DNA of 32,000 nucleotides from Mucisphaera calidilacus (GCF_007748075.1 NZ_CP036280.1:1950001-1982000); one strand, 5' to 3'; counted from the stretch's first letter, positions 1,665-16,383 are shown. A program made the numbers and translations. The notes: a model not told the origin generated them from the letters alone.

Positions 1665-3038
1665 TTAGCGACGACGCAGCATGGCGAGACAGCCCAGACC
1701 GGTGAGGGCGAGTGATGCCGGCTCGGGGACGACGTCCCAGGTGGCCGGGCGGCTGGCGAAGCCGTCGATGAACTCGTTGTGGCCGGCGTAGAAGGGGCCG
1801 AGGAGTTCGGGCTGCGCGTCGAAGTTGACGACGTTGTCGTTGTACATGGCGACGCCGTTCTCGGCATCGATGGAGAGGCGGGCCCAGTCGGCGTCGACGC
1901 CGGTGAGGTCGAACTCGGCGAGGATGTCCCAGGTGCTGTTCTGGCCGCCGTTCTTGGCGTCGACGAGGTAGAGGAAGACGTCGACTTCGCTGCGGGAGAT
2001 GAGCCAGGCCAGGCCGGTCGAGCCGTTGATGCCCGAGCCGACGCTGAGGCGGCTGGCGGGGTCGGGGACGTTGAAGAAGATGCCGGAGTTACCGATGCCG
2101 AACATGGTGGACTCGGCGGAGGGGTTCGCGCCGCCACGGAGCGGGGTGGGGTTGGTGTCGATGTAGGCGTAGATGTCGAAGCCATCGACGAGTTCGTTGG
2201 AGGTGGCGAAGGTGCCGCCGAAGTCGGCCATGGCGATGGCGTTGCCGCCCTGCGGTGAAGCGGGGATGGCGGTGGGGTTCATCGCGGAGACAACGGTGGG
2301 GTCGATGACCTCGGGGTTGATGTAGGAGGCGGTGTAGTCGCCGGTGAGGGTGGTGCCGGTGGCGAGGCCGTCGACGTCGGGGACGTTGTGGCTGACGACC
2401 TGGGGGAGGTTGTTGGAGGCACCGGGTGTCTGGGGGAGCTGGCCGAAGTCGTAGCCGTTGACATCGGTATCGACGCCGTCGAGGTAGCGGCTCATCGACT
2501 GGCCGACGCCGACGCCGGGGACGAGGCTCTGGCTGGCGTAGATGCCGCCGCCGAGCTGTGCACCGATGACGGGATCTGTGGTGGCGATGCCCTTGGAGGT
2601 CTCGAAGGCCACGGCGTCGATCAGGGCGCCGGCCGCGTCGTAGAGCTCAACGGTCTCGTTGCGGTCTTCCATGTAGCCCTGGTCCTGCGACGCGAGGCCG
2701 GAGGCGGGACGGGGAAGCGGGGTGTAGTCGACGTTGGGGACGTTGGCCGAACCGACGACGAAGTAGCCGCCCGCGGGGATGATCGAGCCGGCGGGGAGGG
2801 GGTAGTTGGGGCCGGCGCCGAAGGGGTCGCGGGTGTCGAGGACCCAGCCGGAGAGGTCGACGTCGGCGGTGCCGGCGTTGTAGAGCTCGATGAACTCGCC
2901 GTCGGGTTCGGACGAACCGCTGTTGTCGTTGACGTCGAGGTCGTAGAGGACCTCGTTGACGTAGACCTGGGCGTCGGCGTTGGCGCCGAAGCCCATGAGT
3001 GCTGCGATGAGCAGGGTTGAAGTGGTGACGCGTTCCAT
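1665..3038 (-). CDS. Secreted lamin-tail-domain (LTD) protein with C-terminal PEP-CTERM sorting signal
   Basis: Has an N-terminal signal peptide (TLLIAALMGFGANADA). LTD signature: VYVNEVLYD...EFIELYNAGTADVDLSGWVL ... SMSRYLDGVDTDVNGYDFG..TPGASN. C-terminus VPEPASLALTGLGCLAMLRRR is PEP motif, TM helix and basic tail. A strong SD (AGGAGGA) sits about 8 nt upstream of the ATG at 3038. Confidence 0.85.
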   Translation of the reverse strand: MERVTTSTLLIAALMGFGANADAQVYVNEVLYDLDVNDNSGSSEPDGEFIELYNAGTADVDLSGWVLDTRDPFGAGPNYPLPAGSIIPAGGYFVVGSANVPNVDYTPLPRPASGLASQDQGYMEDRNETVELYDAAGALIDAVAFETSKGIATTDPVIGAQLGGGIYASQSLVPGVGVGQSMSRYLDGVDTDVNGYDFGQLPQTPGASNNLPQVVSHNVPDVDGLATGTTLTGDYTASYINPEVIDPTVVSAMNPTAIPASPQGGNAIAMADFGGTFATSNELVDGFDIYAYIDTNPTPLRGGANPSAESTMFGIGNSGIFFNVPDPASRLSVGSGINGSTGLAWLISRSEVDVFLYLVDAKNGGQNSTWDILAEFDLTGVDADWARLSIDAENGVAMYNDNVVNFDAQPELLGPFYAGHNEFIDGFASRPATWDVVPEPASLALTGLGCLAMLRRR

Positions 3039-3097
3039 TTCTCGAATCCTCCTGTGGGGTTACGGATGCGGGCGACATTGCCCTGGGGTGAACAAGA

Positions 3098-3125
3098 CCC
3101 GGGTGACGCGTTGGCATCACCCGGG
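3098..3125 (-). terminator. Perfect 9-bp hairpin just after the stop of the upstream LTD paralog
   Basis: CCCGGGTGA (3098-3106), 10-nt loop, TCACCCGGG (3117-3125). On the minus strand it starts 8 nt after the stop codon at 3134-3136 and is followed by TCTTGTTCAC, a weak U-tract. Confidence 0.45.
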
Positions 3126-3133
3126 CGTGTGGG

Positions 3134-4783
3134 TCAGCGGCGGCGGATCAGTGCGAGGGCACCGAGGCCGATGAGCGCAGCCCCGGCGGGCTCGGGTGTC
3201 TGTGTGGTTTCGAAGTTGGTGGCGAGGATGGAGAGGTCGAGGAGGTTGACCAGTCCGTCTCCGTTGAAGTCGCCGTCGGCGTTGGTGTAGGGGGTGTCGG
3301 TTCCGTCGAAGTTGGAGGCGAGGACGGAGAGGTCGAGGAGGTTGACGAGGCCGTCGCCGTTGGCGTCGCCGGGGAGGCTGACGACGGAGCTGACCATGTC
3401 CCAGGTGGCGGGCCGGGTGGCGCGGCCGTCGACGAACTCGTTGAAGCCGACGTAGAAGGTGCCGAGGAGATCGGGCTGTGCGTCGAAGTTGATGATTTCG
3501 TCGTTGTAGGTGGCGACGCCGTTCTCGGCATCGATGGAGAGACGTGCCCAGTCGGCGGCTTCGTCGGTGAGGTCGTACTGAGCGAGGATGTCCCAGGTGT
3601 CGTAGTCGCGTCCGCCCTGCTTGGCGTCGACGAGGTAGAGGGTGGCGTCGACGTCGGTGCGGAGGAAGAGCCAGGCGAGGCCGGTGGAGCCGTTGACGTT
3701 GGATCCGGTGGCGCCGAGCTTGTCTTCGGGGTCGGGGATGTTGAAGTTGGCGTCGGTCGTGCCGATGCCGAACATCGTGGATTCCTGCGGCGTGTTGCCG
3801 TCGGCGCGGGTCACGACGGAGGTTTCGAGGTAGGCGTAGATATCGATCTTGTCGACGAGTTCCTGGCCGGCGACCATGGTGCCGCCGGAGGAGTCGGAGA
3901 CTGCGATGGCGTTGCCGCCCTGGGGTGAGGGGACGATGACGGTGGGGTTGAGGGTGGAGACCACGGTGGGGTCGATGACGGTGGCTGCGACCCAGGACTC
4001 GGTGTATTCGGTGAGGGTCGCGCCCTCGGCGAGGCCGTCGACGTCGGGGACGACGTGTTGTGGGACGGAGGGGAGTGCGTTGGGTGCGCCGGGGGTGGCC
4101 TTGAAGGCGCCGAAGTCGTAGCCGTTGACGTTGGTGTCGTGGCCGTCGATGTAGCGGCTGACGGAGATGTTGCCGTCGGCGCGGATGGACTGGAAGTTGC
4201 TCCAGAGGCCGCCGGGGACGGTGGAGGCGGAGGGGTTGGTCTCGTCGATGTCGGGGCCGGCACCGATTTCGGCGAAGACCTCGGCGGGGATGAAGATCTG
4301 GTTGGCGTCGGCGCCGCTCACCCACTTGTTGACTTCGTAGCGGACGGCATCCTGGAGCACGCCGGTGTTGCTGTAGAGTTCGATGGTTTCGCTGCGGTCC
4401 TCGAAGAGCCCCTGCTTGGCCTGGCTGCCGTTGCCGTTGGGGGTGTTGTAGTAGGGGGTGAGGACCTGATCGACGTTGGGGACCGAGCCCCAGCCCATGA
4501 CGTAGAAGTCGCCGGCGGCGAGGGTGGTGCCTGCGGGGATCTCGAAGGAGGCGTTGAGGCCGCTGAGTCCGTCGGAGTCGACGGTGTCCCAGGCGTCGAG
4601 GGTCCAGCCGCTGATGTCGACGGGGCCGTTGCCGGCGTTGTAGAGCTCGACGAACTCGCGGTTGGTGTCCTCGGCGTCGTAGTTGTTGGTGTCGTAGATA
4701 AACTCGTTGATGACGACCTGGCCGCTGGCGGCGGAGGTCGAGAGGGCGAGTGCGAGCGCGAGCAAGGAACGTGTCTTGAGCAT
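3134..4783 (-). CDS. Secreted LTD protein with two dockerin-like Ca-binding repeats and PEP-CTERM; paralog of 1665..3038
   Basis: Signal peptide SLLALALALSTSAASG. LTD motif VVINEFIYD...EFVELYNAGNGPVDISGWTL ... VSRYIDGHDTNVNGYDFG..TPGAPN. Dockerin-like repeats DANGDGLVNLLDLSVLASNFDG and DFNGDGLVNLLDLSILATNFE. C-terminus TPEPAGAALIGLGALALIRRR. SD GAGGAG upstream of the ATG at 4783. Collinear with 1665..3038 along the whole length. Confidence 0.85.
   Translation of the reverse strand: MLKTRSLLALALALSTSAASGQVVINEFIYDTNNYDAEDTNREFVELYNAGNGPVDISGWTLDAWDTVDSDGLSGLNASFEIPAGTTLAAGDFYVMGWGSVPNVDQVLTPYYNTPNGNGSQAKQGLFEDRSETIELYSNTGVLQDAVRYEVNKWVSGADANQIFIPAEVFAEIGAGPDIDETNPSASTVPGGLWSNFQSIRADGNISVSRYIDGHDTNVNGYDFGAFKATPGAPNALPSVPQHVVPDVDGLAEGATLTEYTESWVAATVIDPTVVSTLNPTVIVPSPQGGNAIAVSDSSGGTMVAGQELVDKIDIYAYLETSVVTRADGNTPQESTMFGIGTTDANFNIPDPEDKLGATGSNVNGSTGLAWLFLRTDVDATLYLVDAKQGGRDYDTWDILAQYDLTDEAADWARLSIDAENGVATYNDEIINFDAQPDLLGTFYVGFNEFVDGRATRPATWDMVSSVVSLPGDANGDGLVNLLDLSVLASNFDGTDTPYTNADGDFNGDGLVNLLDLSILATNFETTQTPEPAGAALIGLGALALIRRR
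3211..3370 (-). repeat. Two imperfect 64-nt direct repeat copies starting 96 nt apart, encoding the two dockerin-like repeats
   Basis: cgaagttggtggcgaggatggagaggtcgaggaggttgac... at 3211 and cgaagttggaggcgaggacggagaggtcgaggaggttgac... at 3307. The shared exact 21-mer ggagaggtcgaggaggttgac is at 3230-3250 and 3326-3346. Confidence 0.8.
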
Positions 4784-4969
4784 CCTGATATCTCCTCAGT
4801 GAGTGCTTGCGGGCGGAGTGGACAACGGCAGAACATCGCCGGGTCCCGGGGGTGTTATGAAAATTATGCAGAGGATGTTCAGATATAACCACGAGTGAAT
4901 TCGCGATTTTTGATACGGAATTGACCCTTTAACTGATCTCTAACGTTAATATTGTGATATTCTCAACTC
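4784..4969. promoter_or_regulatory. AT-enriched divergent control region between the LTD gene (-) and the AraC regulator (+)
   Basis: A 186-bp non-coding gap whose 3' part is much more A+T-rich than the flanks (aaaattatgca, agatataacc, cgatttttgatacgg, taacgttaatattgtgatattctc). It holds TTGACC (4921-4926) and TAATAT (4947-4952) hexamers, though 20 nt apart, and TGATAT-type repeats at 4786 and 4955. Confidence 0.4.
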
Positions 4970-5830
4970 ATGGAACCGTTACTCGAGCATCTGACGCCGA
5001 CGCCCCAGTCTTCGTTTCGCCTGTACACGCGCGTGGATGATCACTTTTCATTCGAGTGGCATCACCATCCGGAGTACGAGTTGACGCTGATTCTGGAGGG
5101 TTATGGTCGCCGTTTCGTGGGCGATTCGATTCACGGGTACGAGGCGGGTGACTTGGTGCTGATCGGCCCGTATCTGCCGCACACGTGGCAGTCGGACGAA
5201 TCGTCTTCGGACAACACGGCGGTGGTGATCCACTTCACGGAGGCGTGGGTGAAGCAGGGTGTGGGGAGTTGGCCGGAGTTGCAGTATCTGGCGCGGATGC
5301 TGGATCGCTCGACACACGGGCTGCTGTTCGATGAGCGGACGCGTGCGCGTGCGGCGGAGGGTCTCAAGGCGTTGTCGTCGATGTCGGGGCTTGGGCGTCT
5401 GGCCCGTCTGCTGGAGGTTCTGTACGGGTTGGCGAGTGACCCGAAGGCACGGACGATCGCGTCGCCGGGGTATCGCCGTTCGTCGCGACCGATTGACCCT
5501 CGGATTGATCGGGTGTGTCGTTTCGTGAATGACCGGATCAACGAGGAGCTGACCCAGCGTGAGGTTGCGGCGATGATCCGGATGAAGCCGACGAGCTTCT
5601 CGCGTCTGTTCAAGCGTGCGATGGGCAAGACGTTTATTGAGTACGTGCATGAGCTGCGGATCGCGAACGCGTGCCGCGGCCTGGTTGAGTCGGATGACCC
5701 GATCACGGACGTCTGTTTCCGTTCGGGCTTCAACAATGTTTCGAATTTTAATCGTGTGTTCCGGAGGCTGGTGGGCGTGAGTCCGCGAGCGTATCGACGA
5801 CAGTTCCACGAGCCTGCGGCGCGTGCGTGA
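4970..5830 (+). CDS. AraC/XylS-family transcriptional regulator with N-terminal cupin sensor domain
   Basis: Cupin-like N-terminus (FEWHHHPEYELTLILEGYGRRFVGD...GDLVLIGPYLPHTW). C-terminal AraC double HTH (LTQREVAAMIRMKPTSFSRLFKRAMGKTFIEYVHELRIANACRGL...ITDVCFRSGFNNVSNFNRVFRRLVGVSPRAYRR). Confidence 0.9.
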   Translation: MEPLLEHLTPTPQSSFRLYTRVDDHFSFEWHHHPEYELTLILEGYGRRFVGDSIHGYEAGDLVLIGPYLPHTWQSDESSSDNTAVVIHFTEAWVKQGVGSWPELQYLARMLDRSTHGLLFDERTRARAAEGLKALSSMSGLGRLARLLEVLYGLASDPKARTIASPGYRRSSRPIDPRIDRVCRFVNDRINEELTQREVAAMIRMKPTSFSRLFKRAMGKTFIEYVHELRIANACRGLVESDDPITDVCFRSGFNNVSNFNRVFRRLVGVSPRAYRRQFHEPAARA

Positions 5831-5848
5831 AGCACGGAGAGGAAGAGC

Positions 5849-6685
5849 ATGAATCTGACCATGGAATCAGCGGCACTGACGGAGGCGTTGGATCAGCCCT
5901 TTGCGCTGAGCGCGACGCATCTCGAGCGCTTCGCGAAGTTCGGTTACGTCAAGATCCCGGGTGTGTTGTCGCCTGAGTTGCTGGAGGCGGTCCGCGAGCC
6001 GATCGGGCGGGTCGTGCAGGCGAACAACAAGCATGCGGGTGTTCCGATCGAGGAGCGTGACACGTACGGCAAGGCGTTCATTCAGGTGACGAACATCTGG
6101 GAGCAGAGCGAGGAGGCCAGGCGTTTTGTGATGGGCAAGCGTCTGGGGCGCATCGCGGCGGAGCTGCTGGGTGTTGCCGGTGTGCGTCTGTACCACGATC
6201 AGGCGTTGTACAAGGAGCCATCGGGCGGGATCACGCCCTGGCATCTGGATCAGTACTACTGGCCCCTGGCGACCGACCGGACGGTGACGGTGTGGATTCC
6301 GCTGGTGGAGATCCCGATCGAGATGGGTCCGCTGAGTTTTGCGGCCGGCAGTCAGGAACTGGATTTTGGTCGCGACATGGCGATCTCGGATGACAGCGAG
6401 ACGGCGTTGCGTGACGCGTTGGAGCGTGAGGCTTATCCGGTGGAGGCGTCGGCCTACGCGCTGGGTGAGGTGTCGTTCCACCTTGGCTGGACGGCGCACC
6501 GCGCGGGTCCGAACCGTGGCGAGCGTGCGCGTGAGGTCATGACGATGATCTACATGGACCGCGACATGACGCTCATGGAGCCGAAGCACGAGAACCAGCG
6601 GCATGACCGCGAGGTATTCTGCCCGGGTATTGAGGTGGGTGCGGTGTGCGACAGCCCGAAGAATCCGATTGTCTATGAGGCGTGA
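5849..6685 (+). CDS. Phytanoyl-CoA dioxygenase (PhyH)-family Fe(II)/2-oxoglutarate oxygenase; substrate unknown
   Basis: FAKFGYVKIPGVL start typical of the PhyH family. HxD facial-triad motif in ITPWHLDQYYWP, distal His in FHLGWTAHRAGPN. SD GGAGAGGAAG upstream. Starts only 18 nt after the AraC stop. Confidence 0.8.
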   Translation: MNLTMESAALTEALDQPFALSATHLERFAKFGYVKIPGVLSPELLEAVREPIGRVVQANNKHAGVPIEERDTYGKAFIQVTNIWEQSEEARRFVMGKRLGRIAAELLGVAGVRLYHDQALYKEPSGGITPWHLDQYYWPLATDRTVTVWIPLVEIPIEMGPLSFAAGSQELDFGRDMAISDDSETALRDALEREAYPVEASAYALGEVSFHLGWTAHRAGPNRGERAREVMTMIYMDRDMTLMEPKHENQRHDREVFCPGIEVGAVCDSPKNPIVYEA

Positions 6686-6691
6686 GTCTGG

Positions 6692-8035
6692 TCAGCGCTG
6701 GAAGTCGTAGAGATTCGACAGATTGAGGATGCGAGTCAGCTCGTCGAGGGCGTCGCGTGCGATCGTGATGAGTTTCGGATCGGCGAGGTCGTCGGGGGTC
6801 AGGGTTTCGGGGTAGGTCCGGTGCGCCCAGTCGCGGAGTTGTGCGGCGCGCCGCTCGGTGAGCAGCAGTGACTGGGGGATGGCGGCCTGCTGGTGATCGG
6901 TCAGGACGACGCGTAGGCGGAGGCAGGCGGGCCCGCCGCCGTTGCTCATGGACTGCTGGAGGTCGAAGAAGAGGGCTTCGTGGATGAGGCCCTGCGTCTG
7001 CCAGTCTTCGAGCAGCCGGCTGACGGCGGGCGACTGGCGGCAGTTCTCGGGGCAGACGATGAGCCGCTGTCCGTCGGGCGTGCGGAGCAGTTGGCTGTTA
7101 AACAGGTAGGAACTGACGGCGTCCTCGAGTGAGACCTCGTCGGGGTGTACGCGGAGGATGATGAGAGGCTGGGCGTGGTGTCGGTTCCACGTCTCGGTGA
7201 TCTGGCTGATGGCGTCGTCGGTGTCGATGTAGGCGTGTTCGTGGAGCAGGAGGAGGTCGGTGTCGCCGACGGCGATGACGTCGTTGTGGAAGACGCCCGC
7301 GTCGATGGCGTCGGGGTGCTGCTGGAGGAAGAGGGTGCGCTGGGGATCGAGTTGGTGTCGGCGTGCGACGGCCTGCGAGGCGGCGAGGCGTTGGCGGGCG
7401 TTGAAGCGACGGGGCTCGGGGCCGGGACTGGTGCCGCGGGGAGCGGCGGTGCCGTATGTGAAGATCTCGATGCCGGGGTTGTCGTGGGTGGGTGCGAGTC
7501 GTGTGTGATTGGCGGCGCCCTCGTCGGTGAGCGCGGCGGGGAGCGGGTCGTGGACGGCGAATCGGGTGTCGTCGGCGAAGATGCGGCGGAGCAGACGCGT
7601 GGTGAAGGGGGCTTCGAGCGAGCGGTGGAGGGCGCTGGTGAGGTTGGCGGGTGAGAGATGGAGTCGCTGGTCGGCGGTGTCGGGTGCGGGGCTGACGGTG
7701 GCGGCGTTGGCGGTCCACATCGCCGAGGCGCTCCACGCGGCGGCGAGGAGTTCGGGCGCGTGTCGTTGTGCGGCGTGGAGGAGGTCGGCGTCGGTGCCGG
7801 TGAAACCGGCGGCGCGGAGCAGGTCGAGGTGGGGGCGTTCGTGGGGCGGGAGGACGGCCTGGGGTATGCCGAGTCGTGCGAGGGTCGCTGCCTTGTCGAT
7901 GCCCTGGAGGACGGCGGCGCGGGGCGAGGCGGTGTCGCCGCGGTGGGTCTGCGAGGCGAGGTTGCCGGGCGCGAGGCCGGCGTAGTTGTGGGTGGGGCCG
8001 ACGAGGCCGTCGAACTGGAACTCGGTGGTGGTCAT
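6692..8035 (-). CDS. astB: N-succinylarginine dihydrolase
   Basis: Near-diagnostic motifs: FDGLVGPTHNYAGLAPGNLAS, PQAVLPPHERP, DEGAANHTRL, GVFHNDVIAV, YLFNSQLL, SNGGGPACLRLRVVLT. Its start overlaps the astD stop by ATGA (8032-8035). Confidence 0.95.
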   Translation of the reverse strand: MTTTEFQFDGLVGPTHNYAGLAPGNLASQTHRGDTASPRAAVLQGIDKAATLARLGIPQAVLPPHERPHLDLLRAAGFTGTDADLLHAAQRHAPELLAAAWSASAMWTANAATVSPAPDTADQRLHLSPANLTSALHRSLEAPFTTRLLRRIFADDTRFAVHDPLPAALTDEGAANHTRLAPTHDNPGIEIFTYGTAAPRGTSPGPEPRRFNARQRLAASQAVARRHQLDPQRTLFLQQHPDAIDAGVFHNDVIAVGDTDLLLLHEHAYIDTDDAISQITETWNRHHAQPLIILRVHPDEVSLEDAVSSYLFNSQLLRTPDGQRLIVCPENCRQSPAVSRLLEDWQTQGLIHEALFFDLQQSMSNGGGPACLRLRVVLTDHQQAAIPQSLLLTERRAAQLRDWAHRTYPETLTPDDLADPKLITIARDALDELTRILNLSNLYDFQR

Positions 8036-9504
8036 GAGGAGGGTGTGATGCCGGGGAGGGGTTTGTCGACGGGCGCGAGGGGCCCGGCCTCCATGGAGGC
8101 GACGGGGAAGGCGCAGTAGGCGGCGGCGGCGCTGGCGCTGGGTCGGTGGTTGCCGCTGCGTCCGATGCCGCCGAAGGGCATCTTGCCGGAGGCGCCGACG
8201 GTGGGCCCGTTGAGGTTGATGATGCCGGCGCGGACGGTGTGCACAAAGCGGTCGAAGTGTTCGGCGTTGTCGGTGAGGAGCGAGGCGGCGAGGCCGTAGC
8301 GTGTCTGGTTGGCGAGGGCGATGGCGTCGTCGAGGGTACGGGTGGTGAGGACGGAAAGGAGGGGTCCGAAGTATTCTTCGTCGGGACGCTTGTCGGGTTC
8401 GATGGCGAGGATGCCGGGCGTGAGGATGCCGGTGTGAGGTCCGGCGACTTCGAGGGGGAGGACGGGCGCTGCGCCAAAGTCGAGGAGTTGCTGTTGGGCG
8501 TCGAGAATGGCCTGCCCGGCCTGCGGGGTTATGAGGGGACCGCAGAAGGGCGCGGGCTCGGCGTCGAAGGGTCCGACGGTGATGGATCGTGCGATACCGG
8601 TGAGGCGGTCGAGGAAGGCGTCGCGATCGATGCTGTCGGTGAGGATGACGCGTCGGGCGCAGTTGCAGCGTTGTCCGGCGGTGGAGAAAGCCGAGACGGC
8701 GGTGATGTAGGCGGCGGTATCGAGGTGGTTGGTGTCGTGGACGACGATGGGGTTGTTGCCGCCGAGTTCGAGCGCGACGATCTTGCCGGGCTCATCGACG
8801 AGGCTGGCTGCGATGGATCGGCCGGCGGGGTAGCTGCCGGTGAAGAGGACGCCATCGGTCTGCGGGTGCTGGACGAGTGCCTGTCCGGTGTCGCGTGCGC
8901 CGACAACGGCGGAGAGAACGCCTTGCGGGAGCCCGGCCTTCTGCCAGAGCTCGGCCATGATCATGCCGGCGGTGGGCGTGCGTTCGCTGGGCTTGAAGAC
9001 GATGGTATTGCCAGCGAGGAGCGCGGGGGTGATGTGGCCGTTGGGCAGGTGGATGGGGAAGTTGAAGGGTCCGATGACGGCGAGCAGGCCGTGGGGCCGG
9101 TATCGGGTCACCCCCCTGCCGTTGGGCAGGTCGATGGTTCGATCGGCGAGTTGACGGCGGTGTTCCTCGATGGAGGTGGCGACCTTGGGGGCGAGCAGCG
9201 CGGCTTCGCCACGCGCCTCCCAGAGGGGTTTGCCGGCTTCGCGTGCGATGGCGAGGGCGATTTCTTCGGTGTGCTGTTTGGCGAGTTCGGCGTAGCGTTG
9301 GGCGATCTCGATGCGCTGGTCGAGCGGGGTGGCGGCCCAGGCGGGGTGAGCGTCACGGGCGGCCTGGACGGCCTCGTCGACCTGATCGCCGGAGGCGGCG
9401 TTGCCCTGCCAGGTGGGTTCGAGCGACCAGGGGTTGTGGGCTTGGAGCGGGGCGCCTGTGCCGGCGGCCCAGTTGCCGTTGATGAGGTGCTGTCCGGGGG
9501 TCAT
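8032..9504 (-). CDS. astD: Succinylglutamate-semialdehyde dehydrogenase (aldehyde dehydrogenase family)
   Basis: ALDH-family layout (HLINGNW..., FKPSERTP, LELGGNNP, catalytic Cys context AGQRCNCARR, FGGIGRSGN) and its position between astA and astB. The assignment within the ALDH family rests mainly on context. Confidence 0.85.
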   Translation of the reverse strand: MTPGQHLINGNWAAGTGAPLQAHNPWSLEPTWQGNAASGDQVDEAVQAARDAHPAWAATPLDQRIEIAQRYAELAKQHTEEIALAIAREAGKPLWEARGEAALLAPKVATSIEEHRRQLADRTIDLPNGRGVTRYRPHGLLAVIGPFNFPIHLPNGHITPALLAGNTIVFKPSERTPTAGMIMAELWQKAGLPQGVLSAVVGARDTGQALVQHPQTDGVLFTGSYPAGRSIAASLVDEPGKIVALELGGNNPIVVHDTNHLDTAAYITAVSAFSTAGQRCNCARRVILTDSIDRDAFLDRLTGIARSITVGPFDAEPAPFCGPLITPQAGQAILDAQQQLLDFGAAPVLPLEVAGPHTGILTPGILAIEPDKRPDEEYFGPLLSVLTTRTLDDAIALANQTRYGLAASLLTDNAEHFDRFVHTVRAGIINLNGPTVGASGKMPFGGIGRSGNHRPSASAAAAYCAFPVASMEAGPLAPVDKPLPGITPSS

Positions 9505-9510
9505 CGCTGC

Positions 9511-10527
9511 TCAGCTTTCGTTGTTGTAGTCGGGTCGGAGTCGGACGGCGCGGATGGGTTCGCCTGATTCGAGGTCAAGGGTGGCGGCCACGTCGTGTGG
9601 GATCTGGAGGGTGTCGCCCTCGGGCCGAGCGGGGGCGAAGGTGGCGAGGAAGGTGTCGCGGGTATTGCCGATCATCCAGAGTTCGTTGGCGTCGGCGGGG
9701 ACGTCGGTGGTCCAACGCCAGATGCGGCTGTCGCGGACGGTTCGGATCTGCTGGGTGGGGCAGGTGACGATGGGGCCTGCGTCGAAGATATCGACGAGGT
9801 CGCCGTGCTGGAATCCTTCCTGCATGAGCAGGTGGAGCGCGGGCTGGGTGTCGGGGTGCGCCTTGCCGACGACGGAGGTGGCGGCATCGGGGAGCAGGGT
9901 GAGGTAGATGGGGTGTCGGGGCATGAGCTCGGCGATGAACTGCTTGTCGTGTGCGGAGCGGAAGTCGGCGTCGGAGTAGTCGAGGGTGTAGAAGTGTCTT
10001 CCGACCGCGTCCCAGAAGGGGCTTCGTCCGGCGGCGTCGGAGACGCCACGCATCTCGGCGAAGACCTCGGGCTGGAACTGGTCGGGGAACTGTGCGACGT
10101 AGAGGAAGCGTGCGAGGGAGAGGAATCGCCCGGTGCCGCCGCCTCGGGCGCTGGGGCTGAGGAAGAGCGTGCCAACCTCGGTGGGGCCGTTGTAGAAGAG
10201 CTTGCGGTGGAGGACCTCGACGTTGTGGGTGATGCCGAGGCCCTGGGAGTGATGGGTGAGTGTCTCCTTGCGGTAGGAGTACCAGGGCTCGCCGATGCCG
10301 ACCTGACAGGTGATGCCCGAGCTGCCGACGACGCGTTGGTTCTCGGGTTCTTCGAGGACGAAGAGCCGTGACTTGCCGGAGCGCGATTTCTCGATGCGTT
10401 CGGCGAGGGAGTCGCGGTCGGCGGCGAGTGAGGTGAGCCCGTGGCCTGACTGGTGGGCGAGGTTGAGCAGCGCGTCGAGGTCACCGTTGTTGACGAGTCG
10501 GAGCCGGGGGCGGAGCTGTGGGGTCAT
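9511..10527 (-). CDS. astA: Arginine N-succinyltransferase
   Basis: AstA-type motifs: GLTSLAADRDSLAERIEKS, EPWYSYRKETLTHHS, PTEVGTLFLSP, FAEMRGVSDAAGRSPFWDAVGRHFY, FIAELMPRHPIY, DIFDAGPIV. Its stop is 6 nt from the astD start. Its start overlaps the channel gene stop by ATGA (10524-10527). Confidence 0.92.
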   Translation of the reverse strand: MTPQLRPRLRLVNNGDLDALLNLAHQSGHGLTSLAADRDSLAERIEKSRSGKSRLFVLEEPENQRVVGSSGITCQVGIGEPWYSYRKETLTHHSQGLGITHNVEVLHRKLFYNGPTEVGTLFLSPSARGGGTGRFLSLARFLYVAQFPDQFQPEVFAEMRGVSDAAGRSPFWDAVGRHFYTLDYSDADFRSAHDKQFIAELMPRHPIYLTLLPDAATSVVGKAHPDTQPALHLLMQEGFQHGDLVDIFDAGPIVTCPTQQIRTVRDSRIWRWTTDVPADANELWMIGNTRDTFLATFAPARPEGDTLQIPHDVAATLDLESGEPIRAVRLRPDYNNES

Positions 10528-11396
10528 GGCTGTTTCTCGCTGACGTGTCGGCGGATGGCCTGGAGTCGGAGCTTGATGTTGTCGACGTCGCGGGCGAGTT
10601 CGACGAACTCGTCATCGACGGTGGGGTGTTCCTTGCGTGCCTCGGCCTCGGCCTGCGCCTCTTCCATCGAGGTGATGATGACGCCGATGAAGAGGTTGAG
10701 CATGATCATGGTGCCGAAGAGCACGAAGGAGACGAAGTAGACGACGGCGAGCATCGGCTGCGCGGAGGGCTGTTCCGGCTGGGCGGCGGGGTTGTCGATG
10801 GCGAAGACGTCGGAGCCGTACATCTGGATGTACATGATGTCGGTCCAGTCCTCGAGGGTCACGATGCGGAAGAGCGAGAGGAGGGCGAGTTGGAGGTTGC
10901 CGAAGTGGACGGGGTCGTTCTCACGGAAGGCGAAGACGCCCATGACGGCGTAGATGTAGAAGAGGATCACCAGGAGCACGCCGACGTAGACCATGGAGGG
11001 GACGCTGCGGAGCAGCGCTTCGACGAGCAGCTGGAGTTTGGGCAGAGTGGAGATGAGGCGCAGGGCACGGAGGACGCGGACGAGTCGCGTGATGGCGGCG
11101 GCGTGCCCGCCGACAGGCAGGAGACAGACGACGACGATGGAGAAGTCGAAGACGTTCCAGGGGTCGTAGAAGTAGCGGTACCAGTGTCGTCCGTGCTGGG
11201 CCATCTTGAGGATGGCTTCGAGCGCGAAGAGGGTGATGATGACCCAGTCGATGGTGTGGATCAGGTCGCCGTAGCGAGCCATGACTTCGGGATACGTCTC
11301 GAGGCCGACGATGACGGCGGCGACGAGGATCAGGCCGAGGATGGCCTGCCCGAACAACTTGCTGTTCACGAGTTCACGGATCTTCAGAATCAGCAT
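10524..11396 (-). CDS. Single-domain voltage-gated cation channel of the bacterial NaV/CaV (BacNav, Ion_trans) type
   Basis: Has six TM segments. S4 carries four Arg at every third position (RLVRVLRALR, nt 11058-11087). The pore is FRIVTLEDWTDIMY, S6 is MIMLNLFIGVIITSM, and there is a C-terminal neck/coiled coil (DDEFVELARDVDNIKLRLQAIRRHV). Length of 290 aa is typical. Confidence 0.9.
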   Translation of the reverse strand: MLILKIRELVNSKLFGQAILGLILVAAVIVGLETYPEVMARYGDLIHTIDWVIITLFALEAILKMAQHGRHWYRYFYDPWNVFDFSIVVVCLLPVGGHAAAITRLVRVLRALRLISTLPKLQLLVEALLRSVPSMVYVGVLLVILFYIYAVMGVFAFRENDPVHFGNLQLALLSLFRIVTLEDWTDIMYIQMYGSDVFAIDNPAAQPEQPSAQPMLAVVYFVSFVLFGTMIMLNLFIGVIITSMEEAQAEAEARKEHPTVDDEFVELARDVDNIKLRLQAIRRHVSEKQP

Positions 11397-11434
11397 GCGG
11401 ACAGGTTAGCGTCGCGGCGGCCGTTCGTGGCGGC

Positions 11435-14400
11435 CTAGGTATGGCTCATCCGCAAACCGGCGATGGCTCCCTGCACACCCCCGGGTCCGCTCATGGTGAC
11501 GTGCAGCTGCTGACCGCCACCCCAGTCGAAGTAGAGCAGCTCAAAGGGGTAGAAGCCGGCGTCGAGGTTGATGGTTCCGGTGACGGTCTTCACGCCGTGG
11601 ACGCCGTCGTTATCGACGACCAGGTTGTCACCGATGCGGAGCTGGCTGCCGTCGTCGGAGGTGCTGGTGAAGGCGTAGAGCCCGGGGGTATCGATCCAGA
11701 GGTATCCGTGCCAGCGTATGCCGACCTGGCCGGCGACGCCCGGGGGAAACAGGCCTGTCGAGAGTTCGGTCGTCGTCCCGCTGAGCAGGAGCTCGCTTTC
11801 GGTCAGGCCCTGGACGGTGTGCTGCGTGTGGTTGACGTAGACCTCGTAGGCGAGTCCGGCTTCGCTGCCGACTGGCGGCTCGATGATCCGGAAGGGTATC
11901 TGAACGCTGCTGAACTGTCGGTCGTCGTCGCGTACGTTGGCGTAGAGGGTGAAGCTGCCGGCCTCGGTCGCGGTGCCGGTGAGTCGGCCATCGGATGTGA
12001 GTGTGAGGCCCTCGGGCAGCAGGTTTGTCGCTGCGGCCCAGACCCGATCGCCGTTGCCGCCGTGCGCTTCGAGCTGGATATCGATGGGCGTGCCCATCGC
12101 GATGGCCGGCAGCTCTCTCGACGTGATGAAGGGGGCGCTGGGGACCGGAGCGCTGTCCTCGATGCGGATGTTGTCGAGCCAGAGCTGGTCACCCTGTGCG
12201 GTGGAGACGTGCAGCGATTCGAAGACGACCACGATGAACTCGTAGCCCTGCCCGAAGTCGATCTCGAGTTCGAAGGCGGTCGTGGGCGTTGTGCCGTTGA
12301 GGAGGTCGCCGCTGTCGAGGAGGCGATCGACCTCACCCTCGAGGCCGAAGATCGGCACGGGGGGGCCGTCGCTGTAATGGGGCAGCACGAACTCGGGGGC
12401 GTTGACGCCATAGACCACGGCGCGGAGTTGGGCGTCCTCGCCGGCCTGCTCGATCATGCCGGCCTCGAAACTGAGTGTCTTGACGCCCCGGGTGATGTTC
12501 TGGTCGCGGACGACCTGGTTGAGCGCGTGGTTGATCTCATTGCTGCCCGGGAGTCGTGTTGCAACGCCGTCGTCGACGGTCCATCCGTAGTTGACCCAAC
12601 CCAGGCCCTCGTCAGCCGAGGTGGGCCGTCGCCAGTCATAGCCGGTGAAGATATCTTCGGCGTCATCGAACGTGCCGTCGCCCAGGGGATTGACGAGTGC
12701 AGCGGGTCGTGCGTCGAGTGTGCGTGTGACCGAGGTGCTGCGGCCGGCGGTGTCGACAATCGTCAGCGTGACGGGCTTGGGTCCCGCGCTGTCGAAGGTG
12801 TGCCTGACCTTGCGGCCGAAGGCGTCGTTCACGCCGTCGGCGTCGAAATCCCACCCGTAGCTGGCGATGCCGATGCTGTCGATGGCCCGCGTGTCAACGT
12901 GATATGAATCCGACGCGTCCAGTTCGAAGGCGTTGGTGGCGAGGAGGGTCGATTCGAAGTGTGCGTAGGCGGGAACGCTGTGCGGGCTGCGTGCTTCGAA
13001 GGCCGTGTTGTCGATCACGAAGTAGTGGGGGTCGATGCTGGTTGTGTTGTGAAAAGCACCGAAGATCTGCAGGGGGACGTCGACGTTGCGGATCGTGCTG
13101 TTGAGCAGCCTGGACGCGGCGTTGCGTGCGGGCGAGGGGTCGTGCTGTTCGTCGGCGGAGGCCATGCCCTCGGCGAGCAAGCGGAGGCCGATCTCGAAGC
13201 CCTCGATGTGCAGGTTGTCGTAGGTCAGGTTCTTGGACGCGGTGTTGGAGCCGACGCCTCGGCCGCGTCCCTCGCCGTTGATGCCGGTGCGGTAGGCGAC
13301 GGGGTCGTCGAGGTCGCCGAGGATCAGGCCGTTGCGGAAGTCCGTCTGGCTGGTGTACTGCGTGAAGATCCCGTCGCCTCGGATGGCCCAGAAGGCGAAG
13401 TCTTCGATCGTGGTGCGGAGACGGTGGGCGGGTGTCTCGAGCCCGAAGGTAAAGCCGAGTTCGCCATCTTGGTTGCGCATATGTCCCCAGGTGATGAGTC
13501 CGAACTCGGCGTTGAGGACGGTTGAGTCGAAGATGCCCCGGGCGGGGACGTTGAAGGCATCAACCGCGGCGTCGCCCTGGGTGATCTCGGGGTGTTCGAG
13601 CACGGCGGCGGGGATCTTGACGCTGCGCATGGCATCAACGTTGCTGAAGAGCATGATGCCCGCGCTGGCCGAGCTGGCGGCGATGTTGCCGTCCATGAGG
13701 ATCTGGCCTGCGCCCTGGAGCCAGAAGCCCTCGCCGTTGAACCCGAAATCGAACAGGGGTACGCGGGGCGAGAGGTCGAAGTCGAGTTCCGGGCGGTCGT
13801 CACCCGTGGTCTTGATGGTGAGGTTGTTGGACCAGGTGCCGATCTCGTTGCCGTCCTCCGCGACGATGGCGGACCCGACGACGTCGAAGACGACGTTGTC
13901 GGAGAGATTCGCGTGACTGTCGTGGTGGACGATGCCCCAGCCCGGGCTGCCCCAGACGGCGTTTCCGGCGACTACGGCGGGTGTCGTGGCGAGATCGCCC
14001 GCGCCGAGGCGGTGGAGGTGGAGTGCGTAGCGTCCGCGCTGGTTGGTGCCGTTTCCGGGCGTGCCGTCGACGTTGACGACCGGTTCGTCGACCAGGCGGT
14101 TCTTGTCGCTGCGGCCGAGGTCGTAGAAGGAGGCGTTGCGGATCACGACCTGTGCGGAGTGCATGAACATCGTGTGCCCGCGCTGCTGGGTCAGTGTCTG
14201 ATCGGCGTCGAGGGTTTGGATCAGCACGTTGCGCGTCATGTTGGCGGCGTAGACGGTGAGATCCCAGTCATCAAACCCCTCCGGTGGATGATGATCCCAG
14301 AGCAGGCTGTCGAGTTTCCCGTCGGCTTCCTGCGTCAGGTTATGAAAGGTGACGAGTGTCTGGTTGGCGCGTTCCGTGATTGAGGTAACACGCAGGACTT

Positions 14401-15166
14401 CGTCGTGAAAACGGCTGTTGTCATCGTTGGAGCCGTCGGGATCTGTGGTGGTGCCGGTCAGGACAAGGATGTCGCCGACGCGCCAGCCGTCGGGCCGGCC
14501 GTCGAGGACCAGTGTCTGGTCGCCGGCCGAGGGGTGAAGGGCGAGGGGGAGGAAGTCAATCTTGTCGCTGCCGACGATCGTCGTGTTGCCGTGCGTGAGC
14601 AGGCCGCGGCCGATGAGTTGCGGGTCGGTGATCGCGCCGCGTGAGGGGTCGATGAGCAACTCGGCCCGGACGTCGGGCTGGATCGGGCGGTCCTCGCTTC
14701 CCATGGAGAACGCTGAGCCGGGCATCGCGACGAACGTGTCAACGACCAGTCGTGTGTTGATCTCGGTGTGAAATTCAAAGCGAGCGCCGTGGTCGACGCG
14801 GACACCACGGTAGGAGGTGTCACTGACCATGTCGTAGACGATGTCGATGCCGCCGGGGATGACGACGACGTCGTCGGACTGGGGCAAGGCACCGCCCCAG
14901 GTGTCGGGGTCGGACCAGAGTCCGGACCGGACTGCGACGGTGTTCGTCGCGGCGTCGGGCAGGAGTGCCATGAGCGTGTGGCCCATGCCGTCATGTGCTG
15001 CGTGCACCTGCGTTGAGGCGTTGTGCTGCACGCCTGCCTCGAACGCCACCTCGTAAACCGGCTCGGGCACGTGGAAGTCCGGGATCGGCGCGTCCGCCGC
15101 GAGCATGAGCCGGGGTTCGAGCGGTTCGAGACCGCGAACGGTTTGATGGTGATGTCGGTTTGCCAT
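11435..15166 (-). CDS. Giant secreted G8-domain / right-handed beta-helix / PKD / cadherin-like Ig / PA14 protein; probable glycan-binding or glycan-degrading
   Basis: N-terminal LEPLEPRLMLAA motif. G8-like segment (SGLWSDPDTWGGALPQSDDVVVIPGGIDIVYD). Long beta-helix-like middle region. PKD-like segment (DFDADGVNDAFGRKVRHTFDSAGPKPVTLTIVDTAGRSTSVTRTLD). Dystroglycan/cadherin-like Ig (LLPEGLTLTSDGRLTGTATEAGSFTLYANVRDD). C-terminal PA14 (GIRWHGYLWIDTPGLYAFTSTSDDGSQLRIGDNLVVDND...FYPFELLYFDWGGGQQL). Confidence 0.8.
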   Translation of the reverse strand: MANRHHHQTVRGLEPLEPRLMLAADAPIPDFHVPEPVYEVAFEAGVQHNASTQVHAAHDGMGHTLMALLPDAATNTVAVRSGLWSDPDTWGGALPQSDDVVVIPGGIDIVYDMVSDTSYRGVRVDHGARFEFHTEINTRLVVDTFVAMPGSAFSMGSEDRPIQPDVRAELLIDPSRGAITDPQLIGRGLLTHGNTTIVGSDKIDFLPLALHPSAGDQTLVLDGRPDGWRVGDILVLTGTTTDPDGSNDDNSRFHDEVLRVTSITERANQTLVTFHNLTQEADGKLDSLLWDHHPPEGFDDWDLTVYAANMTRNVLIQTLDADQTLTQQRGHTMFMHSAQVVIRNASFYDLGRSDKNRLVDEPVVNVDGTPGNGTNQRGRYALHLHRLGAGDLATTPAVVAGNAVWGSPGWGIVHHDSHANLSDNVVFDVVGSAIVAEDGNEIGTWSNNLTIKTTGDDRPELDFDLSPRVPLFDFGFNGEGFWLQGAGQILMDGNIAASSASAGIMLFSNVDAMRSVKIPAAVLEHPEITQGDAAVDAFNVPARGIFDSTVLNAEFGLITWGHMRNQDGELGFTFGLETPAHRLRTTIEDFAFWAIRGDGIFTQYTSQTDFRNGLILGDLDDPVAYRTGINGEGRGRGVGSNTASKNLTYDNLHIEGFEIGLRLLAEGMASADEQHDPSPARNAASRLLNSTIRNVDVPLQIFGAFHNTTSIDPHYFVIDNTAFEARSPHSVPAYAHFESTLLATNAFELDASDSYHVDTRAIDSIGIASYGWDFDADGVNDAFGRKVRHTFDSAGPKPVTLTIVDTAGRSTSVTRTLDARPAALVNPLGDGTFDDAEDIFTGYDWRRPTSADEGLGWVNYGWTVDDGVATRLPGSNEINHALNQVVRDQNITRGVKTLSFEAGMIEQAGEDAQLRAVVYGVNAPEFVLPHYSDGPPVPIFGLEGEVDRLLDSGDLLNGTTPTTAFELEIDFGQGYEFIVVVFESLHVSTAQGDQLWLDNIRIEDSAPVPSAPFITSRELPAIAMGTPIDIQLEAHGGNGDRVWAAATNLLPEGLTLTSDGRLTGTATEAGSFTLYANVRDDDRQFSSVQIPFRIIEPPVGSEAGLAYEVYVNHTQHTVQGLTESELLLSGTTTELSTGLFPPGVAGQVGIRWHGYLWIDTPGLYAFTSTSDDGSQLRIGDNLVVDNDGVHGVKTVTGTINLDAGFYPFELLYFDWGGGQQLHVTMSGPGGVQGAIAGLRMSHT

Positions 15167-15397
15167 GGCGTCGACTCCAATTCATCGCCAGGGCATCGAA
15201 AGCAGGGGTACAGACGGTCGCCACCGCCTCGTGCGGTGGTGACAGCGAATCTCGCTGTGATTGACCCTTTCTTCCCGAGCCTCCGATGACCATGCCTCTC
15301 ACGCCCCGCGTGGTCAAGCGGTGCATCGTACCCGGGGTTTCTCCCAACGCCACCCGGGGAGCGTTAAATATGGTTGAGCCTCGCGTGACCGTGGCGT

Positions 15398-16228
15398 TCA
15401 GCCCATGAAGGCGGTCGGTCCGCCGTGGCCGAAGAGGATGACATAGATGTCCTTGAAGAACTTGGCGAGAAAGAAGTTAAGGACAATGATGGCGATGAAG
15501 GATGTGACGAAGGCGTCGGTGGCGGCGCGTCCGACGCCCTGGGCACCGGAACCACAGTGGAAGCCCTTGTAGCAGGCGATGAGACCGATGGCGAGGCCGA
15601 AGATGAGGGCCTTGCCGAGACCGGTGAAGACGTCCCAGTTGCCGATGAACCGGGCGGAGAAGTCCCAGTACTCGCGGCTGTCGACGCCGAGGGCGTTGAC
15701 GCAGACGAGGTGTCCGCCGTAGACGCCCATGAGGTTCGAGAAGACGGTGAGGATGGGGACCATGATCAGGCAGGCGATGACGCGCGGGACGACGAGGTAG
15801 TCGATGGGGTCGGCGCCCATGACGCGGATGGCGTCGATCTGTTCGGTGACTTTCATGGACCCGAGTTCGGCGGAGATGGCGCCGCCGACACGTCCCGCGA
15901 TCATGACAGCGGCGAGGACCGGGCCGATCTGCCGCAGGACGGAGATGCCGATGATGCCGCCGAGGCGGGATTCCTGCCCGATGGCCTCGAACTGGTCGAA
16001 GGCCTCGACGCCTAGGACGGCACCGACGAAGAGCCCCACGAGCATGACAACGGGGATTGATCGTGTTCCGATGGCGTAGAACTGGGGCATGAGGAGGTAG
16101 AGCCTGCTGCGACCGACCATCCATCGAACGGCCCAGTTGGCGGTGGTGAGGCAGAATCGTGTGAAGAGGCCGAAGCGGTCCAGGTTGAATTCAGCCGCAG
16201 CACCGAGGGATGCGACGGTTTTGATCAT
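15398..16228 (-). CDS. mlaE: MlaE-family ABC transporter permease (phospholipid/lipid maintenance type)
   Basis: MlaE-like sequence (QFYAIGTRSIPVVMLVGLFVGAVLGVE, MKVTEQIDAIRVMGADPIDYLVVPRVIA). The ORF-track start at 16315 lies inside tRNA-His, so I place the start at the ATG at 16228 (MIKTVASLG...). That gives 276 aa, in the usual MlaE size range. Confidence 0.8.
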   Translation of the reverse strand: MIKTVASLGAAAEFNLDRFGLFTRFCLTTANWAVRWMVGRSRLYLLMPQFYAIGTRSIPVVMLVGLFVGAVLGVEAFDQFEAIGQESRLGGIIGISVLRQIGPVLAAVMIAGRVGGAISAELGSMKVTEQIDAIRVMGADPIDYLVVPRVIACLIMVPILTVFSNLMGVYGGHLVCVNALGVDSREYWDFSARFIGNWDVFTGLGKALIFGLAIGLIACYKGFHCGSGAQGVGRAATDAFVTSFIAIIVLNFFLAKFFKDIYVILFGHGGPTAFMG

Positions 16229-16348: not shown

Positions 16349-16383
16349 ATAGAGGGTGCCCGGCGGGCACCGTCGAGCCGCAT

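Follow-up and report, generated by a model that had tools for sequence, protein, structure and literature searches.

In Mucisphaera calidilacus, a gene for a voltage-gated cation channel and the arginine catabolic genes astA, astD, and astB are arranged head-to-tail in what looks like a single operon. This channel-astADB arrangement is real and previously undescribed. We give roughly even odds (about 0.5) to the reading that it is a lineage-specific operon of the Mucisphaera clade, produced by one rearrangement in which astADB captured the promoter of the channel, and that the resulting dependence retains the junction. In the window, by which we mean the whole 32-kb stretch of DNA that was analyzed, the four genes are as follows:

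10524-11396, minus strand: voltage-gated cation channel, 290 aa, the first cistron (Ion_trans profile match)
9511-10527, minus strand: astA, arginine (or arginine/ornithine) N-succinyltransferase, 338 aa (PF04958, TIGR03243)
8032-9504, minus strand: astD, succinylglutamate-semialdehyde dehydrogenase, 490 aa (TIGR03240, NF006992)
6692-8035, minus strand: astB, N-succinylarginine dihydrolase, 447 aa, the last cistron (PF04996, TIGR03241)

Gene packing and junctions

Direct reading of the sequence defines three junctions. The TGA of the channel overlaps the ATG of astA (ccATGAcc, 10524-10527), the TGA of astA is separated from the ATG of astD by a 6-nt gap (gcagcg), and the TGA of astD overlaps the ATG of astB (tcATGAcc, 8032-8035). 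The initial annotation had described the same four minus-strand open reading frames and the same junctions (ATGA, 6 nt, and ATGA), all of which were confirmed when re-read, and the identities that it gave to the genes were upheld by Pfam and NCBIfam profile matches. A search downstream of the overlapping ATG found no alternative start codon for astA. Within the channel-astADB block, a sequence scan found no promoter-like or terminator-like sites on the operon strand, and no Rfam element was matched. [quoted passage not shown]

The cistrons are codirectional, joined by overlaps or very short junctions, and uninterrupted by any internal terminator that the scan could find, and co-expression of the channel with the ast genes is very likely on this evidence. 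ATGA is the commonest overlap type among bacterial operons, and so the packing of the channel against the ast genes is itself ordinary; the unusual feature is the identity of the genes that are packed.

The ast enzymes

AstA, with a PF04958 match at 2.6e-110, scores above the TIGR03243 subfamily cutoff (343 bits versus 284). It falls under the cutoff of the strict equivalog TIGR03244 (331 bits versus 391), and its substrate specificity is thus arginine or arginine/ornithine. AstD passes the TIGR03240 equivalog cutoff (596 bits versus 579) and scores 605 bits against NF006992, while AstB matches PF04996 at 5.3e-180 and passes the TIGR03241 equivalog cutoff (553 bits versus 538).

The operon resembles astCADBE of E. 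coli and aruCFGDBE of Pseudomonas aeruginosa in its AstA, AstD, and AstB orthologs, their A-D-B order, and their tight packing, but it differs from them in having no astC or astE and in carrying a channel gene at the 5' position. A profile search that covered the operon and the 32-kb window, out of a genome of 3.49 Mb, detected no astC (Aminotran_3), astE (AstE_AspA), or M20 genes there. ArgD is able to substitute for AstC, and so the AST pathway may function despite the missing local astC.

The channel and its relatives

The first cistron encodes a single-domain, six-transmembrane (6-TM) channel that matches PF00520 (Ion_trans) with an E value of 1.7e-48 over profile positions 2 to 240 of 241. 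Among characterized channels, it matches NaChBac at 1e-45 and NavMs and NavAb at 1e-33 to 1e-36. Hydropathy peaks fit S1, S2, S3, S5, the P-helix, and S6, and the S4 motif RLVRVLRALR (R104-L-V-R107-V-L-R110-A-L-R113) places an arginine at every third position; all four arginines are invariant across the clade alignment. A C-terminal coiled coil is indicated at the sequence level: in one heptad register of residues 256 to 290, 8 of the 10 a/d positions are hydrophobic.

The channel is assigned to the "ancestor-like" BacNav group, AnclNav, on the basis of pairwise identities and its selectivity filter, with the group defined as in PMC7041947. It is 50 to 51% identical to NavPp (50%), CavMr (51%), and the AnclNav of Coraliomargarita, and 30 to 37% identical to the canonical BacNavs NaChBac, NavBP, NavSp, NavMs, and NavAb. 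It is close to NavPp, an AnclNav protein from Plesiocystis pacifica (Shimomura et al. 2020, eLife, PMC7041947), with which it shares an identical seven-residue TLEDWTD filter, 50% identity along the whole protein, the four S4 arginines, the C-terminal coiled coil, and an extracellular P2-S6 loop of about 20 residues that is missing from canonical BacNavs. The Mucisphaera channel, known here by sequence, differs in being the first cistron of an arginine catabolic operon; the literature gives neither a physiological role nor a genomic partner for NavPp.

CavMr, the native prokaryotic Ca2+ channel of Meiothermus ruber, belongs to the same subgroup and has the long pore loop, but its filter reads TLEGWVD, in which Gly4 and Val6 determine Ca2+ selectivity (PMC7041947). 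The Mucisphaera channel has Asp4 and Thr6 at these positions, as does the Na+-selective NavPp. NaChBac and NavBP have in common with it the 6-TM architecture, which is predicted to be homotetrameric here too, the S4 arginines, and the T-L-E-x-W core of the filter, whereas they are just 35 to 37% identical (35% for NavBP), have the filter TLESWAS, and lack the long P2-S6 loop. The channel is predicted to work as NavPp does, as a homotetramer that opens on depolarization, conducts Na+, and is blocked with low affinity by extracellular Ca2+. Its job would match that in many related bacteria where the channel gene stands alone.

Recurrence across genomes

Whether the adjacency recurs in other genomes was a question raised by the initial annotation, and the answer has two sides: it is found in three relatives and so is not unique to this genome, but among the sampled loci, it does not extend beyond the Mucisphaera clade. 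The channel-astA-astD-astB block is present in the window and in three more Mucisphaera-clade genomes (L001, L002, and L004), all of the Phycisphaerae, with identities of 71 to 74% for the channel, 55 to 73% for AstA, and 60 to 71% for AstB. In none of the four is the channel separated from the following cistron by untranslated sequence. The junction takes the form ATGA in the window, TTGA in L002, and a 20-nt overlap with astA in L004. In L001, the channel overlaps by ATGA an inserted 100-aa open reading frame, which encodes another small membrane protein and is the only gene inserted at this junction, followed by 9 nt to astA.

Outside the clade, ast genes were found beside the channel in 0 of about 130 other channel loci listed with at least 1.2 kb downstream in a sampled survey, whose genome listing did not include the genome of the window itself, and no neighbor of the channel recurred universally among those loci. 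Conversely, none of five sampled outgroup AstA loci has a channel beside AstA, and one Planctomycetota metagenome-assembled genome (MAG; JBCCBV01) carries an astADB operon and a channel ortholog that lie on separate contigs (L087 and L031). The nearest AstA proteins outside the clade whose contigs were read are 47 to 48% identical, and the nearest overall are at most 50% identical.

These outgroup operons, from uncultured Planctomycetota, Binatia, and others, share the astA-astD-astB core and its overlapping junctions but differ at the 5' end, where an M20-family peptidase, with or without a transaminase, occupies the place that the channel holds in the Mucisphaera clade. Two have the order M20-Aminotran_3-AstA-AstD-AstB (L169 and L171), and two have M20-AstA-AstD-AstB (L087 and L170); the M20-family peptidase is likely a desuccinylase. 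The proposal that the channel sits in the slot of astC is, accordingly, half right, as astC precedes astA in two outgroup cases and the M20 peptidase directly does so in the other two. The confinement of the adjacency to one clade among the sampled loci points to a single evolutionary event; independent occurrences elsewhere may exist.

On its other side, the block adjoins two plus-strand genes:

4970-5830, plus strand: AraC-family regulator (Pfam)
5849-6685, plus strand: PhyH-family dioxygenase (Pfam), convergent on astB, with the stops 6 nt apart

PhyH adjoins astB in all four genomes, and the AraC gene is present in three of the four. The regulator and the dioxygenase are conserved synteny partners of the block.

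The 5' end of the operon

Upstream of the channel, three further features bear on where the transcript begins:

11397-11434, minus strand: 38-nt spacer between the TAG of the giant-protein gene and the ATG of the channel, read directly
11403-11408, minus strand: TAACCT, a candidate -10 hexamer that ends 6 nt before the channel ATG and is conserved in relatives
11435-15166, minus strand: upstream neighbor encoding a secreted-type protein of 1243 aa with G8, beta-helix, PKD, He_PIG, and PA14 domains (Pfam)

Equivalent hexamers precede the homologous channel ATG in L004 (TAACCT), L001 (TATTCT), and L002 (TATGCT), ending 6 to 7 nt upstream. TAnnnT occurs at this distance in all four genomes, whereas it precedes 3 of the 752 ATGs of the window as a whole, a background of 0.4%. 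Also, a GGAGG-type motif precedes most other genes in the window, but the channel, astA, and astB have no Shine-Dalgarno (SD) sequence. The geometry of the TAACCT hexamer is as expected for a leaderless mRNA, and it may serve as the promoter. Taken with the missing SD sequences, the conserved TAnnnT suggests that the mRNA is leaderless, has the channel first, and relies on reinitiation for its ast cistrons. The channel would be the promoter-proximal cistron, with its ATG probably at or very near the 5' end of the mRNA, and translation of astA, astD, and astB, which have no usable SD sequence, would follow by termination-reinitiation at the ATGA, 6-nt, and ATGA junctions. In L002, an SD-like GGAGAAGGAGAG precedes the astA start, so reinitiation is maybe not obligatory everywhere.

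The gene upstream of the channel differs in each genome: it encodes the G8 protein in the window, MlaE in L004, and in the remaining two an N_methyl protein and a divergent 138-aa open reading frame with a 176-nt gap. Since this neighbor changes and is divergent in one case, the promoter must sit directly 5' of the channel, at least in L001. The last 18 nt of the spacer are nearly identical in L004 despite the presence of MlaE upstream there. A gene for the giant G8 protein lies near the channel in three of the four genomes and is absent in L004. In L001 and L002, intervening genes, divergent or otherwise, set it apart from the channel, and in the window it is probably outside the operon.

Proposed origin and retention of the operon

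The ancestral operon would have been M20-(astC)-astADB. A rearrangement would have removed its 5' part, comprising the M20 peptidase, with or without astC, and the promoter, and left astADB immediately downstream of a channel gene that was already resident and normally stands alone, so that astADB captured its promoter. The arrangement most likely arose once, and a single rearrangement of this kind would make co-expression obligatory. Thereafter, astADB would depend on the channel promoter and on translation of the channel open reading frame, such that a break at the junction would cost AST expression; this dependence would be enough to explain why the junction is retained. The clade-limited arrangement may be an accident of history and not reflect any partnership in function. 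The junction has nevertheless stayed tight at 55 to 75% protein identity while neighboring junctions were broken by indels, and because selection for co-expression would produce this pattern too, the lock-in may not be purely neutral.

Two alternatives would alter the limits of the transcription unit. The initial annotation was right that the 38-nt spacer holds no convincing terminator: no terminator-like site was detected there, and its predicted fold is no better than those of shuffled sequences (z = 0.02). The short gap would allow an operon that begins farther upstream, with tRNA-His, MlaE, and the G8 giant gene, and reads through into an internal channel cistron, and the sole sigma70-like match on the minus strand between 6400 and 16700 (16413-16384) lies upstream of tRNA-His and MlaE. 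This longer transcript, which had also been proposed, is disfavored by the variable and once-divergent upstream neighbor, the unconserved G8-channel adjacency, and the conserved -10-like hexamer immediately before the channel ATG. We consider it unlikely as an account of the operon, yet it would be compatible with promoter capture if read-through only supplements a promoter close to the channel. The opposite possibility is that astADB has an internal promoter of its own, toward the 3' end of the channel gene, and that ATGA reflects compact packing. Planctomycetal promoters are poorly known, which makes the negative promoter scan weak evidence, and the SD-like sequence in L002 would permit independent initiation at astA. 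Still, the channel open reading frame contains no promoter-like match on the operon strand, none of the four genomes has an untranslated gap after the channel, and astA and astB of the window lack SD sequences in a neighborhood where SD-led genes are the norm. We consider an incidental adjacency of this kind unlikely as well.

A different question is whether the coupling is adaptive, with the channel co-expressed with AST enzymes because arginine catabolism disturbs ion, charge, or pH balance. The disturbance would come from the import of a cationic substrate and the release of 2 NH3 and CO2 per arginine. The remedy would be depolarization-gated Na+ entry that feeds Na+/H+ antiport or Na+-coupled uptake, or else the passage of NH4+ or guanidinium-like cations. 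Besides the very likely co-expression, this idea draws on the channel/astA junction being tight in four genomes while the junction upstream of the channel is remodeled in every one, on the membrane protein that is ATGA-coupled to the channel in L001, and on a marine, Na+-rich habitat. There is also a precedent in NavBP, which supports pH homeostasis in the obligate alkaliphile Bacillus pseudofirmus. The analogy with alkaliphilic Bacillus drawn by the initial annotation is weak, however, as the channel belongs to another subgroup (35% identity to NavBP versus 50% to NavPp) and the host is a neutrophile. Seawater Ca2+ is millimolar. Extracellular Ca2+ blocks NavPp-type channels (PMC7041947), and M. 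calidilacus is a marine organism that grows at pH 5.5 to 8.5, with an optimum of 7 to 8 (PMC8882080). The single origin in one small clade, the absence of the pairing from the other channel and outgroup ast loci surveyed, and the unlinked genes of the MAG also count against adaptation. Moreover, the PhyH-astB adjacency is equally conserved even though these genes converge and share no operon logic, and so conservation at this depth cannot separate function from history. In line with the initial annotation, our literature search found no paper that connects a voltage-gated channel with the arginine succinyltransferase pathway. We regard adaptive coupling as possible but doubtful.

Implications

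If adaptive coupling were true, a NavPp-like channel would be induced together with the AST enzymes and would handle the electrical, Na+, or pH effects of taking up and degrading a cationic, ammonia-yielding substrate, or would conduct NH4+ or guanidinium-type cations. In that case, an AnclNav channel would for the first time have a physiological role, and bacteria would offer their first known example of a metabolic pathway wired to a voltage-gated channel.

A channel gene leads an arginine succinyltransferase operon

In Mucisphaera calidilacus, an arginine succinyltransferase (AST) operon has an AnclNav ("ancestor-like" BacNav) channel as its first cistron, and it is this combination that is new here. 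The channel and AstA each match a protein of this species at 100% identity. The four open reading frames lie where the initial annotation had placed them, and profile searches uphold each identity:

10524-11396, minus strand: channel, 290 aa; Ion_trans PF00520, 1.7e-48, whole profile covered
9511-10527, minus strand: astA, 338 aa; PF04958, 2.6e-110
8032-9504, minus strand: astD, 490 aa; above the NCBIfam equivalog cut-off
6692-8035, minus strand: astB, 447 aa; above the NCBIfam equivalog cut-off

AstA scores above the cut-off for the arginine/ornithine succinyltransferase subfamily and below that for the strict AstA equivalog. Direct reading of the sequence bears out the tight junctions: the channel stop overlaps the astA start as ccATGAcc, astA and astD are joined as TGA-gcagcg-ATG, and astD and astB overlap as tcATGAcc. 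Upstream, 38 nt separate the channel ATG from the TAG of a giant gene, and the earlier claim that this gap lacks a terminator also stands, since it holds no terminator-like site and its fold is not better than that of shuffled sequence.

11435-15166, minus strand: giant gene, 1243-aa G8/PKD/PA14 protein; N-terminal LEPR-XLL-like motif, then G8, CEMIP-type beta-helix, PKD, He_PIG, and PA14

Composition was used to ask whether the channel and ast genes had been acquired horizontally on separate occasions. GC3 is 0.85-0.90 and C3 far exceeds G3 in the channel and ast genes alike, and their codon signatures agree, so there is no sign of recent separate acquisition. The channel has a lower overall GC than the ast genes; second codon positions account for this deficit, in line with a membrane protein.

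Strand asymmetry is pronounced across the window. Plus-strand GC skew is +0.1 to +0.36 over 1-32000 and strongest over 1-15000, while (G3-C3)/(G3+C3) is -0.4 to -0.7 in minus-strand genes and +0.1 to +0.4 in most plus-strand genes. A mutational bias of unusual strength, tied to replication or transcription, seems likely, and, judged by skew, the ast operon would be on the lagging strand.

The channel belongs to the AnclNav subgroup

Among solved structures, the channel matches NaChBac (1e-45), NavMs and NavAb (1e-33 to 1e-36), and individual repeats from eukaryotic Cav and Nav channels. [quoted passage not shown] Identity is 50% with NavPp and 51% with both CavMr and a Coraliomargarita AnclNav, against just 30-37% with NaChBac, NavBP, NavSp, NavMs, and NavAb. 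It also has the P2-S6 loop of about 20 residues common to the NavPp/CavMr subgroup, and its filter, TLEDWTD, is the same as that of NavPp. From these shared features of sequence, we class the channel as an AnclNav. Its S4 segment has four arginines, and one C-terminal heptad register places hydrophobic residues at 8 of 10 a/d positions.

Ca2+ selectivity, which the acidic filter might suggest, was rejected. Measurements on NavPp, whose filter is identical, showed Na+ selectivity, with extracellular Ca2+ acting as a low-affinity blocker, and within the NavPp/CavMr group Ca2+ selectivity depends on a Gly at the fourth filter position (PMC7041947).

The arrangement is conserved within one clade

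In a collection of 5.8 billion proteins, the three nearest channel orthologs (71-74% identity) all have astA-astD-astB downstream:

L001 (same locus as L055): Mucisphaera sp., channel-astADB present
L002 (same locus as L003): Phycisphaeraceae MAG GCA_040222295, channel-astADB present
L004: Logan contig, channel-astADB present

Among the matches listed, AstA proteins at least 55% identical to the query occur only in the same four genomes, and the next best are at most 50% identical. In none of the four is the channel followed by an untranslated gap: the junction is TTGA in L002 and a 20-nt overlap in L004, and in L001 the channel stop overlaps an extra ORF as ATGA, with astA beginning 9 nt after that ORF. 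Nothing homologous to the extra ORF occurs in the other three genomes, and Pfam gives it no significant family; it may encode an accessory subunit of the channel or be a recent insertion.

L001 8903-9205, plus strand: extra ORF between channel and astA, 100 aa, two predicted TM helices

The 5' side of the channel is a different matter. The gene upstream is the G8 giant gene in the window, MlaE in L004, an N_methyl protein in L002, and a divergent 138-aa ORF, 176 nt off, in L001. Because this neighbor differs in all four genomes, the channel marks the 5' edge of the conserved codirectional unit, and the divergent ORF means that, at least in L001, a promoter must sit directly 5' of the channel. 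G8 orthologs (40-54% identity) are near the channel in three of the four genomes, yet uncoupled from it. The divergent ORF encodes a small protein. In two of the four genomes its gene is placed between G8 and the channel, on the strand opposite the channel, and it directly adjoins the channel only in L001; it was found in neither the window nor L004 and has no significant Pfam family.

L001 7408-7824 and L002 1957-2376, minus strand: small protein with N-terminal membrane anchor, 138-139 aa, 47% identity

The wider synteny block of the clade reads PQQ-[LTD, LTD]-AraC-PhyH → ← astB-astD-astA-channel-[variable]-G8-[..]-MlaE. All four genomes keep the convergent PhyH-astB adjacency, which has no operon logic, so conservation of adjacency alone cannot tell function from shared ancestry at such depth. 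The gap-free junction between channel and ast genes is, however, more than synteny, as is the placement of the breakpoints just upstream of the channel and not between it and astA. In the window, only 6 nt lie between the stop codons of PhyH (+) and astB (-) (6685-6692), leaving no room for terminators, so that the transcripts must overlap or end within the opposing gene; the equivalent gap is 230-264 nt in L001 and L002.

Beyond the clade, 160 further channel loci at 45-66% identity were taken as the best 80 from one-genome-per-species contigs and the best 80 from metagenomes. These surveys of channel and AstA are samples, and the window's own genome is not among the genome-scan matches listed. 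About 130 of the loci have at least 1.2 kb of sequence downstream of the channel, and among these, in the matches listed, neither AstA, AstB, nor AstD was found in the channel flanks. The Algisphaera agarilytica channel (65% identity) stands alone. Used as a single query in the metagenome scan, AstA returned no confirmed relatives. Five outgroup AstA loci were read:

L169 and L171: M20 peptidase-Aminotran_3-AstA-AstD-AstB (first gene, M20-family peptidase, at 3348-4577 and 3411-4637)
L087 and L170: M20 peptidase-AstA-AstD-AstB (first gene, M20-family peptidase, at 5709-7004 and 4766-6010)
L088: AstA alone

None has the channel, and so the recurrence that the initial annotation had looked to holds in three clade genomes and fails everywhere else surveyed. 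The MAG with the L087 operon holds a channel ortholog on a separate contig (L031). An AstE-family gene is absent from all four outgroup astADB operons, whose makeup suggests that the M20 peptidase is a non-orthologous succinylglutamate desuccinylase in these nonproteobacterial AST operons.

All-against-all comparison of flanking ORFs across the roughly 160 loci found no universal channel neighbor; neighbors are lineage specific, such as the sulfatase or RlmH-like genes of marine Verrucomicrobiota. The window's flanking genes, sought in the outgroup channel loci to rebuild the ancestral context, were shared with none. The channel-astADB arrangement is thus a real, conserved operon arrangement restricted to one clade.

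Expression signals

Most other genes in the window have a GGAGG-type Shine-Dalgarno (SD) sequence; the channel, astA, and astB do not. In each of the four genomes, a TAnnnT hexamer (TAACCT, TAACCT, TATTCT, and TATGCT) ends 6-7 nt 5' of the homologous channel ATG, a geometry seen at 3 of the 752 ATGs in the window and, among 18 gene starts, at the channel and AraC alone. Taken together, the hexamer and missing SD are the pattern expected of an mRNA, leaderless or nearly so, that starts at the channel ATG and whose downstream cistrons are translated by termination-reinitiation. Scans for sigma70 promoters and intrinsic terminators gave nothing on the operon strand over 6400-16380, and a search for riboswitches or leader RNAs (e.g., guanidine or arginine related) with Rfam at gathering thresholds gave tRNA-His only. 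The channel is very probably cotranscribed with the ast genes.

The AraC-family gene has the leaderless-type geometry of the channel: TATTCT, within an AT-rich patch, ends 6 nt 5' of its ATG, and it has no SD (4925-4972, plus strand). This geometry is kept in L004 (around 12457, minus strand), and across the clade AraC and PhyH stay together, facing astB. The sole sigma70-like hit on the operon strand over 6400-16700 (16413-16384) is immediately 5' of tRNA-His.

16273-16347, minus strand: tRNA-His(GTG)
15398-16315, minus strand: long TTG-start "MlaE" ORF

Since the tRNA lies within the 5' end of this ORF, the true MlaE start must lie further downstream; the Pfam match starts at residue 76.

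Origin and retention of the junction

The M20 peptidase and astC genes are missing from the Mucisphaera-clade locus, and the channel occupies their place. In the simplest account, one rearrangement would have brought astADB up against a channel gene already resident there, with its promoter, after which astADB expression would have hung on the channel promoter and channel translation. Such reliance would be enough alone to preserve the junction, and we give about even odds (0.5) that this neutral lock-in is the main reason for its retention.

Alternatively, the channel may handle the charge, Na+, or pH effects of catabolizing a cationic compound, with release of 2 NH3 and CO2. Coexpression and retention within the clade speak for such adaptive coupling, but we consider it unlikely given the single origin of the junction and the unlinked ast and channel genes of another planctomycete. 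Seawater contains millimolar Ca2+, moreover, and NavPp-type channels are blocked by Ca2+. The rationale offered in the initial annotation, by analogy with NavBP of alkaliphilic Bacillus, is also somewhat weakened: the channel falls in AnclNav, a subgroup other than that of the alkaliphile precedent, and the host is a neutrophile, a marine member of the Phycisphaerae isolated at a shallow hydrothermal site, with a pH range of 5.5-8.5 and an optimum of 7-8 (PMC8882080).

The initial annotation knew of no described link between such a channel and AST, and our literature searches likewise found no paper tying the two, none relevant on BacNav operon context or on AST genes in Planctomycetes, and no reported physiological role for AnclNav channels. 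If neutral promoter capture is correct, the locus is a clean case of an operon recruiting an unrelated gene and then being locked by leaderless initiation and reinitiation coupling. A functional link between the channel and arginine catabolism is the most interesting reading, and a conceivable one. Beyond NavBP of alkaliphilic Bacillus, hardly any bacterial voltage-gated Na+/Ca2+ channel is known to have a defined physiological role. M. calidilacus strain Pan265 can be cultured, and its channel is very probably tied by transcription, and probably by translation as well, to a defined catabolic pathway; arginine as carbon or nitrogen source offers a concrete condition for channel expression and phenotype.
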